Shown piece after piece: positions 15,001 to 21,000 of a stretch of 64,000 nucleotides of DNA. The stretch comes from Escherichia coli (lineage in GTDB: Bacteria; Pseudomonadota; Gammaproteobacteria; Enterobacterales; Enterobacteriaceae). Made by a program: the position numbers. Where the stretch lies: the NCBI RefSeq assembly GCF_013315695.1, contig NZ_CP054353.1; one strand, 5' to 3'. Positions within the stretch are counted from its first letter, which is position 1, and each line of letters begins with the position of its first letter.

Positions 15001-18000
15001 CGCGCGTTCCGACGGACTGCCACGGTTTCAGGTGCGCACGCACTTCGGGCAGGATGCGTTTTGCATCGTTATCGTCGGCAATACCGATCGGGCTGACGTC
15101 CACGGCGGCCAGCGCATCGGCGAACGAGAGTTCCAGCACCACAATCCGTTGTGGCGTTTTTTCGAGTGTAAACGTGCCGTGTTCGTCCTGAACCATGGCG
15201 GCAAAGGCGTGGCTGATCACCAGCAGCAGGCCTGCAAAAAGAAAACGGATAAATGCCAACATAATCACATTCCAGCTAAAAGCCCGGCAAGCCGGGCGTT
15301 AACACATCAGAACTTCAACGACCCCTGCATATACAGCGTGCGCGGCTGGCCTGCATAGATGCCTTTGTTGTTGTCGTCATAAGAGCGGATGAAGTAGTCC
15401 TGGTCGAAGATGTTTTTCACACCGAATGCCAGGTTCAGATCTGCCATCTGCGGGCCAAAGTCATACGCCACGCGTGCGCCCCAGAGCATGAAGCCGGGAA
15501 TGCGGCCGGTACTGCCGTCGGCGCTCTCTTTCACCGTATTGGCGTTATCCGCAAACTGGCTGGACTGGAAATCGCTGTTCAGATTGAACGTCCAGTTTCC
15601 TGGCTTGTAGTCCACGCCCAGCGTGCCTTTATGTTTCGGGGAGAATGGTACCAGATTGCCGTAGGTGTCGCCTTTCTCGCGGATTTCCGCGTTCACATAC
15701 GCATAGCTGGCGTAGATGGAAACGTTATCAAGCGTTGGCGTTAGCGTACCCAGATCGTAACGTGCCTGCGTTTCCAGCCCGGTATGGCGCGTTTTGCCAC
15801 GTGCAGTGACGGTGTCGTTGGTCTGGTTGGAGTCGTACTGATTGTTAAAGTTAATCAGGAACAGCCCCATTTCCGCCGTCAGCGCGCCGTCGTCGTAGCG
15901 GGTACCGAGTTCCCAGGTTCGCGCTTTTTCCGGTTCCACATTGCCGCTTTGCACAGCCTTGCCAATCTGGCTGTACTGTACGGTGCCGAACGAGCCTTCA
16001 GTGTTTGCATAAAGATTCCAGCTGTCAGTCAGGTGATAGAGCACGTTCAACGCCGGAAGTGGTGCGTTATAGCTCACTTCTTCGTGCGTGCCTGTGATGG
16101 CGTTGTTCTGGTATGACTCGATATGTTCGAAACGCATACCCGGCGTGATGGTCCAGTTGCCGATGTCGATTTTGTCATCCAGATACCAGGCGTGCGCCTC
16201 GGTGCCGGAACGCGTATCGCGGTCGTAAGGGCTTGAGCCGGACGGCAACTGCCCGCTGCTGGTGGCGGTGTAGTAACGCATTTCATGCGTTGATTCATTC
16301 ACATAGCGATAGCCCACGCCCACTTCGTGCGCGGAAGGGCCGATCATAAAGATCTGGCTGTAGCGTGGCTCAATACCGCGCACCCAGTAGTTACGCGGCG
16401 AGAGGGTGATGCGTTTGCCTTGCTCCAGGTAGCCGCTGCGCAGGGTTTGGGTGTAGAACCCCTGAATGTTGAATTTATGCTGGCTGTCTGGCTGGAACTG
16501 GTAGCCCAGGCTCGCCAGCTTGCGACGACCCCAGAAGCGGTCATACGGGCGGGTGGATTGCCAGCGATCGGCGTCGTAATCCGCGCGAGACAGGCCACCG
16601 GGCATGTCGGCTTCACCGTCGTAATATTGCAGCAGGCTGTTGAAGGTGTGCACCTCATCCGGCGCATATTTGCTTTTCAGCATCAGGTCGTCGATGCGGG
16701 TGGCGCTGTGCTCGCGCCAGTCACTGCCGCGCGTGCCGGAGTAGAGCAGCGCGGTGCCAAAACCGTTGTCCGCTGTGCCGCCCACCATCAGGTTGTGCGT
16801 CTCTTTCGGGTTGTTTTGTGAAGAGGTTGGGCTGAGCTGACCTTCCACGCCCGCCTCGATACCAAAGTCCTGCGGAATGGCACGGGTAACAAAGTTCACC
16901 ACGCCGCCCACGCTCTGCGGTCCGTAACGCACCGCACCACCACCGCGTACCACGTCAATGGCATCCATGTTGCCGAGCGAAACGGGAGCCAGTGAAAGCT
17001 GCGGCTGACCGTAAGGGGCGAAGGGGACGGGGATGCCGTCCATCAGGACGGTCGAGCGGCTGGCGAGGCGCGGGTTCAGGCCCCGGATGCCAAAGTTCAT
17101 CGCCAGGTCGTGGCTGCCAGTGCCGTTGTTTTCCGGCGCGCTGACGCCAGGGATGCGGTTAAGTACCTCACGCATGGTGGTTGCGCCGGTTTTGGCGAAA
17201 TCCTCACGGCGGATCACGTCACGCGCGCCAGCATGTTCAAATACGTCGTTTTCACGCGCATCACCCAGCCAGTCGCCGACCACGGTCAGGGCATCTTCTT
17301 TTGGTGCGGGCGCGGGCTCCAGCGTCCAGCTGTTATTTCCCAGCGGTTTTACCTGCAGTCCGCTGCCGTCCAGCAGTTGTTGCAGGCCGCTCTCGACGTC
17401 GTAATCGCCGTGCAGGCCGTTGCTCTGCTTGCCGCGCGTCAGGCTGGCGTCAACCGAGAGGGTAATTCCGCTGTGTGCGGCATACTGATTGAGCGCTTTA
17501 TCGAGCGATCCCGGTGCGATATTAACCTGTGCAGCAAAAGCGGAAAACGAGAGACCGGCCAGCGGCAGCAGGCTCAGGCGAATGGCGTTAACCAAAGGTG
17601 TTGTTTTACGAAAAACGCGTAACGGCGTCATACCTTCCCCATCATCATTTTTGTTGTGTTCAGCTATGAGTCGAACGAGAAGGGTAAAAAGGACAATCGA
17701 AATAAGAATTATTTTCCTTACAGTGGTGAAATGTTTATCCAGTACCGCGTAATAGACTGAATTTTAACGGGAAGCGTTTGCGCGATAACGTTCAGGATCG
17801 CATCGGTATTTTTCAGCGGGAACGTCCCGCTCAGGCGCAGCCCGGCAACGGCGGGATCGCAGCGCAGCACGCCGTTGCGGTAACGGGTTAGCGTGGCTAT
17901 CACCTCACCCAGCGGTTTATCGCTGAAGCTCAGGATGTCCTTCGTCCAGCTTGTACTCTCGTCATCCAGCGGTTTCACTGCGCCAAACTCAGAGGCGCTG

Positions 18001-21000
18001 AACTGCAGGCTTTCACCAGCGTTCACGATGCGTTTTTGCGCGGGGGCACTGGCGAGAAGCACTTCCACGGCGTGCTGCTGCACGTCAAGCTGCGTGAAAT
18101 TATCCTGCTGGCGGACGGTAAATTCTGTCCCTAAAGCAGTGAGCTGGCCCTGACGGGTCAGGACACGGAAGGGGCGTTGCAGGGCATCTTTCGCGGTAGT
18201 AATGGCGATTTCACCGTACCAGAGCCGGACGGTGCGCTGATGCGCATCAAAACGCACATCCGCCGCGCTTTGGGTATTCAGCGTGAGCAGGGAGCCATCT
18301 TCCAGTTGCTGACGGCTGACTGTGCCTTTGGCGGTGCGGTAATCTGCCCGCAGACCTTCGCCGGTTTCCGACTGCCAGAGCTGCCAGCCTCCGCTAGCGC
18401 CGAGCAACAGCAGTAATCCTTTCATCACGTGACGGCGGGTGAGGCGGGTATCGTGCAACGCCCGGCTGGCAACGTCGCCAGGCACACCGCCAAGCTGGTT
18501 GCGCAGGTTTTCAACCTGCTGCCAGGCCCACTGGTTATCCTGATCCTGTTGATACCACTGTTGCCAGCGCGCTTCCTGTTGTGGGCTGACGCGCTCGCCG
18601 CTTAGCACGGCATACCAGTGGGAAGCTGAACGCAGCGCCTGACGGCGGGAATCGGTTAACAAAGGATTCATAACCCATACTCCAGACGGAACAGCAGGCA
18701 GTGCTCGACGGCTTTCGCCACGTATTTTTTCACGGAGCTGATGGAAACACCGAGTTTGTGCGCAATCTCGCTGTATGTCAGACCATCCAGTTGCGAAAGC
18801 AGAAACGCTTCACGTGTTTTGCCGTTTAGCCCGTCCAGCATGCTGTCGAGGAGTTGTAGGGTCTCGAGTTGGCTTTCGCGTTCCTCAGGTGAAGGCGCTC
18901 CCCCCTCCGGCATAAGCGCCAGCATCTCCAGATACGCTTTTTCCAGCGCGTTTCGGCGAAACAGGTCCACCATCACGCGTTTGGCGATAGTGCAGAGGAA
19001 GGAGCGAGGATCGCGGATCGTCGAGAGCGTTTCGCTGACCATTACCCGCAAAAAAGTGTCCTGGGCAATGTCATCTGCATCAAAAGCAGACTGGAGTTTG
19101 CGCGTCAGCCAGCTTTTCAACCAGCCGTGATGTGTGCCATAAAGCGACTCGAACGTTAAGGAAGCTGTGGTAGTGGCGCGGTCAGACATGCGGAGTGCAT
19201 CAAAAGTTAATTATCACGTAGTCATATTAATATGAGAATGGTTATCATTACAATTGGAAATAAAATTGTTTCCAATAGACATTTTTAACATGTTGTTTTT
19301 CTAAGTGTTATAAGGTAGGTATAAAATGGGATGGAGCCTCTGCTTCTGGCATGTGTCGGTCAGAATGACTCATGATGTGGTCTGCTATTATTGACATCCT
19401 CAGTGCCCTAAAGGATGGGGATTTCGGTAATGCTGCCAACTTACTGATTTAGTGTATGATGGTGATTTTAAGGTGCTTGCGTGGCTTCCATTTCCATCAG
19501 ATGTCCTTCCTGCTCCGCTACTGAAGGCGTGGTGCGTAACGGCAAAAGCACTGCCGGACATCAGCGCTATCTCTGCTCTCATTGCCGTAAAACATGGCAA
19601 CTACAGTTCACTTATACCGCCTCTCAGCCCGGTAAGCACCAGAAAATCATTGATATGGCCATGAATGGCGTCGGATGTCGCGCCAGTGCACGCATTATGG
19701 GCGTTGGCCTCAACACGGTTTTACGTCACTTAAAAAACTCAGGCCGCAGTCGGTAACCTCGCGCATACAACCGGGCAGTGATGTGATTGTCTGCGCTGAA
19801 ATGGACGAACAGTGGGGCTACGTCGGTGCTAAATCACGTCAGCGCTGGCTGTTTTACGCGTATGACAGGATACGGAGGACGGTTGTGGCGCACGTCTTCG
19901 GTGAACGCACTCTGGCCACACTGGAGCGTCTTCTGAGCCTGCTGTCGGCCTTTGAGGTCGTGGTATTGGCCGCTGTATGAATCACGCCTGAAGGGAAAGC
20001 TGCACGTTATCAGCAAGCGTTACACTCAGCGCATTGAGCGACATAATCTGAATCTGAGACAACATCTGGCAAGGCTGGGACGGAAGTTACTGTCGTTCTC
20101 AAAATCGGTGGAGTTGCATGACAAGGTCATCGGGCATTATCTGAACATAAAACACTATCAGTAAGTTGGAGTCATTACCTCCTCCCGAACTCAAAGCTAT
20201 CATACAGATAATTACTGGTTAACCCTATATAGGGCATTTTAAAGTGTTGTGATCTTACCCAGCAATAGTGGACACGCGGCTAAGTGAGTAAACTCTCAGT
20301 CAGAGGTGACTCACAAGACAAAACAGTTTCAACCAGTAAAAAAACGTAAACACCATTCGCATGAATTTCGTAGTTAAGATCTGAAGCTTGCAGAATGCAT
20401 CGGTGTTACTGCCGGAGTCCGTGAACTTAGTCTGCATGAATCACCACAGCTTTACATCTGTCGCAGTAAACAGCAAAATCAGCAAACTTACTTAAGTATA
20501 TCGAGTGCGATTACAATCGCTGGCGATGGTACAGTTGGTGTGGCGGTCTCAGTCCGGAACAATTTGAAAATCAGAATCTCACTTAAAACGGCATCCATTT
20601 TACAAAAGATGGCCGTCTGTGTATTTGTAATGAATACCTTCTACATGTTTAGAGTGCATAATCCACGACAAGGCGATATCCTAAAAATTAGCTAGCAGGC
20701 AACTTTGATGGCATAGATAATGTTTTTAGTAAAAAAGAGTTGACTGAATATAATACAGCCTCTTCCTACATAAGAAGGAATGTGCTCACAAAAAAAAAAC
20801 ATTAGTCTGCTTCCTGTTCTTACAATAATCAGTATTATGTATTTTATTTATATAGCAAAATATGCTTGTTACACCTGTCATAATTAGGCATGGTAAAATT
20901 ATTGACTGAACCCTGGGGGAGAAAGATGCACAGTGATTATTATAATATGGTTTTTGGTGAAAAATTGGCCAATATTTTATATGAAGCTAACTCTCAATTT

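Follow-up and report, generated by a model that had tools for sequence, protein, structure and literature searches.

A ferric citrate (fec) locus of Escherichia coli between insertion sequences and its apparently intact two-tier control

Trans-envelope (“cell-surface”) signalling to an ECF sigma factor has its founding example in the fec system. In the 64,000-nucleotide (64-kb) stretch of an Escherichia coli contig (NZ_CP054353.1) analyzed here, called the window, its seven genes lie between insertion sequence (IS) elements, which raises the question whether the genes and their regulatory sites are still intact. A preliminary description had answered that the regulatory architecture appears intact and the system is probably functional despite the IS elements. 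This reading is supported, since the control regions are identical to those of K-12, the same flanks are present in K-12 and the IS elements are old and fixed. Nothing was found in the sequence that contradicts intact fec control. We are highly confident that the locus represents the canonical ferric-citrate fec system of E. coli, both tiers of control being preserved, and the system of this strain is probably functional. The locus is already known, being an ordinary, near-identical allele of the K-12 locus and not a new one. All features are compiled in Table 1.

The control would operate in two tiers. In the first one, the conserved block upstream of fecI would supply the sigma-70 promoter of fecIR, and iron-loaded Fur would repress this promoter at the Fur box. 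In the second one, ferric dicitrate on FecA would elicit a TonB-dependent signal that reaches FecR via the N-terminal STN domain, and the cytoplasmic N-terminus of FecR would activate FecI. FecI-RNA polymerase would then initiate fecABCDE at about 17682 from the -35 and -10 elements of the fecA promoter, which a second Fur site would overlie, and a hairpin after fecA would reduce the expression of fecBCDE relative to fecA. Fur binding, FecI dependence and start sites are here taken over by analogy from K-12, in which the Fur footprinting, the primer extension and the mutagenesis of promoters were carried out (PMC9249621, PMC2189734).

Table 1. Positions of fec genes, putative control elements and flanking features in the window.
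Feature	Position	Strand	Remarks
fecIR-fecABCDE locus	19189-11644	-	seven genes, order fecI-fecR-fecA-fecB-fecC-fecD-fecE
fecI, ECF sigma factor	18668-19189	-	173 aa; NF041727 equivalog, 312 bits (cutoff 260)
fecR, transmembrane sigma regulator	17718-18671	-	317 aa; NF007296, 540 bits (cutoff 385)
fecA, TonB-dependent ferric dicitrate receptor with N-terminal signalling domain	15307-17631	-	774 aa; NF041676, 1527 bits (cutoff 1100)
fecBCDE, ABC transporter	11644-15262	-	all four above NCBIfam cutoffs
fecB	15262-14360	-	300 aa
fecC	14363-13365	-	332 aa
fecD	13368-12412	-	318 aa
fecE	12411-11644	-	255 aa
Equivalent of K-12 fecI-promoter Fur DNase footprint	19231-19271	-	contains Fur box; sequence as in K-12
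Conserved block ATTGTAATGATAACCATTCTCATATTAATAT	19224-19254	-	Fur box and likely sigma-70 promoter of fecIR
Predicted Fur box TGTAATGATAACCATTCTC	19252-19234	-	15/19 matches to consensus GATAATGATAATCATTATC
Equivalent of published Fur footprint over fecA promoter	17683-17720	-	-38 to -1; sequence as in K-12
Putative -35 element of FecI-dependent fecA promoter, GGAAAAT	17711-17717	-	-35 to -29
Putative -10 region of fecA promoter, ATTGTCCTTTTT	17686-17697	-	-15 to -4
Putative fecA transcription start (+1)	17682	-	51-nt 5' UTR
Conserved transcribed block CTCGTTCGACT	17669-17679	-	+4 to +14 of fecA
Hairpin GCCCGG-CTTG-CCGGGC, then TTTTAG, in fecA-fecB gap	15282-15297	-	GC-rich; terminator-like match; stem present in fold
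ykiE, small ORF divergent from fecI	19326-19394	+	22 codons; annotated in K-12 (b4801) and AF3; identical to K-12
IS1F copy, fecI side, decayed	~19426-20179	+	14-bp deletion compared with K-12 IS1F
IS911 (IS3 family) remnant, fecE side, frameshifted	~9509-10754	+	blastn against K-12 IS911B and IS911B-1

The genes themselves are complete. All seven proteins exceed the curated NCBIfam cutoffs, and their order and coordinates agree with the annotation of K-12 MG1655 (b4293-b4287, in the KpLE2 element), in which gene order, lengths and 4-bp overlaps are the same. Each frame has the K-12 length and is open up to a single terminal stop, with neither internal stops nor frameshifts, as had been claimed before. 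The “typical 4-bp overlaps” of the preliminary description hold at three junctions only, where they are of the ATGA type (fecI/fecR 18671-18668, fecB/fecC 14363-14360, fecC/fecD 13368-13365), whereas fecD and fecE adjoin without overlap (12412/12411) and gaps of 86 bp and 44 bp separate fecR from fecA and fecA from fecB, respectively. Pfam assigns Sigma70_r2 and r4_2 domains to FecI and DUF4880, FecR and FecR_C domains to FecR; in FecA an STN extension (residues 57-107) precedes the plug (132-244) and the beta-barrel (325-741). A scan of the whole window with Rfam revealed no RNA family within the fec region.

Between 11312 and 19966 the window and K-12 are collinear and gapless with 23 SNPs, none of them in the fecI upstream region (19190-19402), the fecR-fecA gap (17632-17717) or the fecA-fecB gap; the first two of these regions are 100% identical to K-12 MG1655. 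At 11311 a poly-C run differs in length by 1 bp. From 19402 to 17587 there are three SNPs only, every one within fecR. The seven Fec proteins together show eight amino-acid differences from K-12, i.e. none in FecI, two in FecR (E41Q, G93S), three in FecA (T16A, F56I and L444V, where the window has the majority-orthologue residue each time) and three in FecBCDE (FecB T23M and I57S, FecD H41R), and all these states occur in orthologues too.

The two FecR substitutions have to be considered in the light of the rival reading that survives best, namely that the locus is intact but impaired or silent, either because the E41Q/G93S allele weakens FecI activation or because of a defect in a trans-acting factor (TonB, ExbBD, RseP or Fur). 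E41Q, two residues away from W39, is located in the cytoplasmic N-terminal domain that activates FecI and represents a minority state (3/37 orthologues), G93S is rare (2/37), and among the matches listed only two complete genomes are 100% identical to the fecIR region of the window. Moreover, the trans-acting partners (Fur, TonB-ExbBD and the RseP and Prc proteases) are encoded outside the window. On the other hand both substitutions are conservative and natural in orthologous FecR proteins, and FecR keeps every known critical residue: W19, W39, W50 and G181-T182 are present and invariant across 37 orthologues, with the three tryptophans presumably being the conserved ones of the N-terminal sigma-activating segment. 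Gly181-Thr182 is the site of FecR self-cleavage (PMC9249621). In addition, 7.5 kb without any frameshift or stop argue for ongoing purifying selection. We regard an impaired or silent locus as very improbable, and the functional system with intact control remains the preferred reading.

The IS elements described for both flanks were found again. On the fecI side this is the IS1F copy, and insB of K-12 IS1F itself is a pseudogene; the IS911 remnant on the fecE side is annotated in AF3 as a frameshifted IS3 family transposase. K-12 has the same IS911-...-fec-ykiE-IS1F arrangement with the IS elements at the same junctions, with the difference that its IS911 is interrupted by IS30 and IS600 and the copy in the window is not. 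Of complete E. coli genomes, 2596 have the IS1F-fecI junction as compared with 2753 that carry the fecIR region. The flanking IS elements are an old, fixed part of the fec module and no recent disruption.

For the first tier a full mismatch scan of both strands identified the site upstream of fecI as the single best match to the Fur consensus in the window; two sites with 14/19 matches are the runners-up, and no site with three or fewer mismatches is present in the window. A Fur-box-like site had already been recognized here, with a score of 14/19 that has to be corrected to 15/19. In 5000 dinucleotide shuffles of the AT-rich 236-bp region upstream of fecI at least 15/19 matches were reached with P = 0.006 and at least 14/19 with P = 0.035. 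For this reason we take the consensus match alone as modest evidence, the strong evidence being identity with K-12 together with conservation across species. At the fecI promoter of K-12, Fur protects NC_000913.2 4516300-4516340 in DNase footprinting (PMC2189734). The coordinates of this footprint were converted to version.3 by adding 1977 and then to the window, and the offset was checked against the start-codon distances “-51” and “-79” of that paper.

To follow conservation, 38-41 fec loci were aligned, which belong to Kluyvera, Citrobacter, Enterobacter, Klebsiella, Raoultella, Photorhabdus, Pectobacterium, Erwinia and Pantoea. These loci have the fecI-fecR-fecA order and the Fur box 5' of fecI as well, with FecI proteins that are 64-91% identical. 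The block around the Fur box is kept across 41 Enterobacterales loci with the box near-invariant, and the sequence further upstream is unalignable. From this conservation the sigma-70 hexamers of fecIR are likely TTGTAA (19253-19248) and, after 17-18 nt, TTAATA/TAATAT (19230-19224); the +1 of fecI is a position that we can only infer. A generic sigma-70 scan was not enriched (five sites compared with 2.4 ± 1.7 expected from shuffles, with 9/12 hits only). Altogether a Fur binding site is predicted at the fecI promoter. The alternative that the Fur-box-like match and GGAAAAT are chance matches in AT-rich DNA and that fecIR is expressed by read-out from the adjacent IS1, which ends 155 bp upstream of the fecI Fur footprint, could draw on the modest consensus score and the unenriched promoter scan, but its probability is negligible and cross-species conservation effectively refutes it. 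The site does not differ from the one that was DNase-footprinted in K-12, it is kept in about 40 species with unrelated upstream flanks that lack IS1, and the IS1 copy is decayed.

Returning to the preferred reading, its second tier depends on the fecR-fecA gap. The Fur footprint over the K-12 fecA promoter is located at NC_000913.2 4514752-4514789 (PMC2189734) and spans positions -38 to -1 (PMC9249621). Mapped onto the window, the combination of these data puts the putative +1 of fecA at 17682, and because of this GGAAAAT, directly 3' of the fecR TAA stop (17720-17718), falls at -35 to -29. The preliminary description had seen a GGAAAT-type -35 element in this gap, where the FecI-dependent promoter is expected, a claim to be abandoned if start sites were mapped elsewhere. 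For fecA the mapped footprint places both start and element as expected, only that the element reads GGAAAAT; a literal GGAAT or GGAAAT is absent from the fecR-fecA gap. The preliminary description had missed the second Fur site. The Fur consensus is matched only weakly in the fecA promoter, with a best score of 12/19 at 17716-17698. Two further elements had also been overlooked there, namely the -10 block ATTGTCC(C/T)TTTT and, within the +4 to +14 block, TTCGACT, both near-invariant across 38 fec loci and present in the fecR-fecA gap of the other Enterobacterales. In contrast, the GG of the E. coli -35 element is not conserved, the orthologues having mostly AGAAAAAT or AAAAAAT instead of GGAAAAT.

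This distribution can be compared with the mutagenesis of the fecA promoter, where -35 mutations had weak effects and the -10 region and the downstream positions +4 to +14 mattered more (PMC9249621). The unconserved GG of the -35 element fits the weak effect of -35 mutations. In about 40 Enterobacterales loci only the Fur box/promoter block, the -10 region of fecA and the +4 to +14 block are conserved, and the DNA on either side diverges. The alignment provides a compact phylogenetic footprint in agreement with the published mutational sensitivity, with constraint on the -10 region and on the downstream block but none on the -35 GG. By its sequence a FecI-dependent promoter with an overlapping Fur site is predicted in the fecR-fecA gap.

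Mutations in the downstream region abolish fecA transcription, the cause of which is still only conjectured (PMC9249621). The leader also contains a mini-ORF of six codons, ATGATGATGGGGAAGGTATGA (17648-17628), whose end overlaps the start codon of fecA in an ATGA. There is a slim chance that the +4 to +14 block and/or this mini-ORF mark an undescribed post-initiation control in the fecA leader. If so, the mechanism could be a downstream promoter element specific for FecI, or else the ribosome binding site of fecA could be subject to translational coupling or occlusion. The reading of the mini-ORF as a leader peptide was rejected: the ORF is found in just 27/37 loci with its ATG inside the Shine-Dalgarno region, and is probably incidental.

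A hairpin downstream of fecA has been described (PMC9249621). The one in the fecA-fecB gap, which the preliminary description had overlooked, would correspond to this published attenuator that lowers fecBCDE expression, judged by its terminator-like geometry and the literature. When its 61-nt context is shuffled, the hairpin proves no more stable than the shuffled sequences (z = -0.96). Both the hairpin and ykiE are the same in K-12.

Outside the Enterobacterales, FpvI/PvdS-FpvR, FoxI-FoxR and PupI-PupR of Pseudomonas comprise the same trio of ECF sigma factor, transmembrane regulator and STN-bearing TonB-dependent transducer under Fur control, but their regulators function chiefly as anti-sigma factors whereas FecR is required as pro-sigma factor (PMC9249621). 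The FecI relatives retrieved from Pseudomonas are just 46-54% identical.

For annotation purposes, the strain may be credited with a complete iron uptake system that is probably inducible by citrate and repressed by Fur. In E. coli associated with mastitis fec has been linked to gallium tolerance (PMC12548402) and, when plasmid-borne in Klebsiella, to reduced cefiderocol susceptibility (PMC11682805). Here fec is embedded in a pathogenicity-island-like region, and the surrounding island differs from K-12: one flank has shf-like, capU, virK and lpxM genes, the opposite one IS66, Ag43 and CP4-like genes. The AF3 genome is about 99.8% identical to the window (blastn), though not identical.

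The regulatory architecture of the fec system appears to be intact, as the preliminary description had claimed, with its cis regions identical to those of Escherichia coli K-12 and conserved across species. The interval 17632-19260 to which this claim referred is part of a complete fec locus on the minus strand. All seven products exceed the curated NCBIfam cutoff, each for its own specific family; in Pfam terms FecA has an N-terminal STN signalling domain and FecR comprises DUF4880, FecR and FecR_C. The frames are uninterrupted as described: FecI, FecR, FecA, FecB, FecC, FecD and FecE have 173, 317, 774, 300, 332, 318 and 255 amino acids, respectively, which are the K-12 lengths, with one terminal stop each. 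The typical 4-bp overlaps ascribed to these genes (ATGA type) occur at three junctions only, namely fecI/fecR, fecB/fecC and fecC/fecD, but not elsewhere; fecD and fecE, for example, abut with zero overlap.

Genes and further features of the fec locus
Feature	Position	Strand	Remark
fecI	19189-18668	minus	FecI NCBIfam model, 312 bits (cutoff 260)
fecR	18671-17718	minus	FecR NCBIfam model, 540 bits (cutoff 385)
fecA	17631-15307	minus	FecA NCBIfam model, 1527 bits (cutoff 1100)
fecB	15262-14360	minus	FecB NCBIfam model, 499 bits (cutoff 320)
fecC	14363-13365	minus	FecC NCBIfam model, 608 bits (cutoff 396)
fecD	13368-12412	minus	FecD NCBIfam model, 585 bits (cutoff 406)
fecE	12411-11644	minus	FecE NCBIfam model, 487 bits (cutoff 375)
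GC-rich hairpin	15297-15282	minus	GCCCGG-CTTG-CCGGGC then TTTTAG, in the 44-bp fecA-fecB gap
ykiE	19326-19394	plus	22-codon ORF between fecI and IS1, same in K-12

Alignment of 11312-19966 with K-12 MG1655 (NC_000913.3) is gap-free and reveals 23 SNPs. They amount to eight amino-acid differences over the seven proteins, found in FecR (E41Q and G93S), FecA (T16A, F56I and L444V), FecB (T23M and I57S) and FecD (H41R). At all three FecA sites the residue of the window is the majority state among 37 orthologues, which makes K-12 the outlier. In FecR, Q41 is natural in three and S93 in two of 37 orthologues, and W19, W39, W50 as well as the self-cleavage site G181-T182 are invariant. The fecR-fecA gap (17632-17717), the region upstream of fecI (19190-19402) and the fecA-fecB gap are all free of SNPs, and thus every experimentally mapped K-12 cis element in these three noncoding regions is unchanged.

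Scanning of the full 64 kb on both strands with the Fur consensus GATAATGATAATCATTATC gave TGTAATGATAACCATTCTC (19252-19234, minus strand) as the top match. A Fur-box-like site is therefore present upstream of fecI as reported, but it scores 15/19 instead of 14/19; the runners-up are two unrelated 14/19 matches. Dinucleotide shuffles of the 236-bp upstream region (64% A+T) reached 15/19 in 0.6% and 14/19 in 3.5% of cases, and the consensus score by itself is evidence of small weight. What decisively argues for the predicted fecI Fur box are published footprints and cross-species conservation. The Fur footprints of K-12 (fecI 4516300-4516340 and fecA 4514752-4514789 in NC_000913.2; Chen et al. 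2007, Table 3, PMC2189734) were shifted by +1977 from version.2 to.3 and then transferred to the window; with this offset, the strongest sites lie at -51 and -79 relative to the start codons, as that paper gives them. They map to 19271-19231 (fecI) and 17720-17683 (fecA), and the Fur box falls within the former. Of 56 loci encoding FecI relatives (one genome per species), the 40 whose FecI reached an identity of 64% or more were aligned with the window over their upstream regions. From Kluyvera to Erwinia and Photorhabdus the block ATTGTAATGATAACCATTCTCATATTAATAT (19254-19224) is kept, and all sequence upstream of it is unalignable.

Within this block, TTGTAA (19253-19248) and, 17-18 nt further on, TTAATA/TAATAT (19230-19224) might constitute a fecI promoter, with a start near 19217 if TAATAT serves as the -10. 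A generic sigma-70 scan yielded only 9/12 matches with no enrichment versus shuffles, and the Fur-site location given in the review by Braun (2022, PMC9249621), "in the -10 region of fecI", fits these hexamers only loosely. With no difference from K-12 in this region, the fecI start mapped in that strain also holds here, wherever it is located. A second conserved block, CGTGATAATTAACTTTTGAT (19221-19200, minus strand) with a GATAAT hexamer, is found in the fecI leader just 5' of the ATG and is kept from Kluyvera to Photorhabdus, not in Klebsiella or Raoultella. It may be part of the extended cluster of predicted Fur sites that, according to Chen et al. (PMC2189734), continues beyond the footprint.

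The fecR-fecA gap reads, on the minus strand from 5' to 3', TAA GGAAAATAATTCTTATTTCGATTGTCCTTTTTACC/C TTCTCGTTCGACTCATAGCTGAACACAACAAAAATGATGATGGGGAAGGT ATG. According to the same review (PMC9249621), Mn-Fur shields the fecA promoter from -38 to -1, and the Fur consensus occupies -36 to -17. If the 38-bp footprint at 17720-17683 corresponds to -38 to -1, fecA +1 would be 17682 with a leader of 51 nt, and GGAAAAT (17717-17711) would span -35 to -29. The -35 element of GGAAAT type had hence been positioned correctly, but it has four A's and the literal GGAAAT is absent. Unmentioned in the preliminary description was the Fur site over the fecA promoter itself, mapped here from the K-12 footprint; its consensus match is weak (12/19). 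Alignment of the gap from 38 loci shows that the GG of GGAAAAT is not conserved (AGAAAAAT or AAAAAAT in most genera), ATTGTCC(C/T)TTTT at -15 to -4 is essentially invariant and CTCGTTCGACT at +4 to +14 includes a core, TTCGACT, that is nearly invariant. The pattern mirrors published mutagenesis as summarized in the review: transcription is cut strongly by mutations that hit the -10 region or the sequence past +1, and far less by those at -35 (PMC9249621).

The leader also contains a six-codon mini-ORF (17648-17628, minus strand; ATG ATG ATG GGG AAG GTA TGA, MMMGKV), whose stop overlaps the fecA ATG as ATGA; near its three ATGs (17648-17640) lies the ribosome binding site GGGGAAGG. It is probably incidental, since no more than 27 of 37 orthologous loci have an equivalent and its ATG sits within the ATGGAG Shine-Dalgarno region.

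The hairpin in the fecA-fecB gap would correspond to the one that downregulates fecBCDE (PMC9249621). This attenuator and the second Fur site are the two additions to what had been described.

Concerning the reported IS elements on both flanks, blastn identified them as IS911 and IS1F: 9960-20179 matches K-12 from IS911B-1 via yjhV, fecEDCBARI and ykiE to the IS1F end with 99.4% identity and two indels, so the whole IS911-fec-IS1F module is common to both. One indel lengthens a poly-C tract at 11311, in the stretch separating fecE from the yjhV remnant, by a single C (7 C versus 6 C in K-12); the other is a 14-bp deletion within IS1F (19966/19967). A 371-bp probe across the IS1F-fecI junction (coverage at least 80%) detected it in 2596 of 5426 complete E. 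coli genomes, compared with 2753 containing the fecIR region. The IS1F end lies 155 bp past the Fur footprint and the conserved promoter block is untouched. Old, decayed and fixed, these IS elements are also present in K-12 alongside a working fec system. As far as sequence reaches, the system is probably functional despite its flanks; activity in the source strain would rely on Fur, TonB-ExbBD and proteases, all encoded elsewhere. Both the system and its configuration are already known.

Immediately past the IS911 remnant that follows fecE, 5467-9364 (minus strand) encodes a polysaccharide deacetylase (shf-like), capU, virK and a second lpxM (msbB2-like), named after the annotation of the approximately 99.8% identical AF3 chromosome; this cluster resembles one known from Shigella and EAEC virulence plasmids. 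The only Rfam match in the window is IS102 RNA (RF00124; 34031-34267, plus strand; 66 bits versus a gathering score of 46), upstream of an Ag43/CP4-like gene block. At ~45700-55100 (plus strand; approximate, AF3 positions minus ~211) three large genes lie side by side, labelled in AF3 as SNF2-related protein, site-specific DNA methyltransferase and DEAD/DEAH helicase, followed by a frameshifted phosphorothioation-dependent restriction endonuclease; the whole resembles a restriction or defence island. Finally, fimB (type 1 fimbrial switch recombinase; 60752-61354, plus strand) is interrupted by an in-frame stop at codon 162 (…DTRLI*DYLGH…) that costs ~39 C-terminal residues; fimE (61832-62428) and fimA (62909-63463) are intact, and in AF3 both fimB and fimA are annotated as carrying internal stops.
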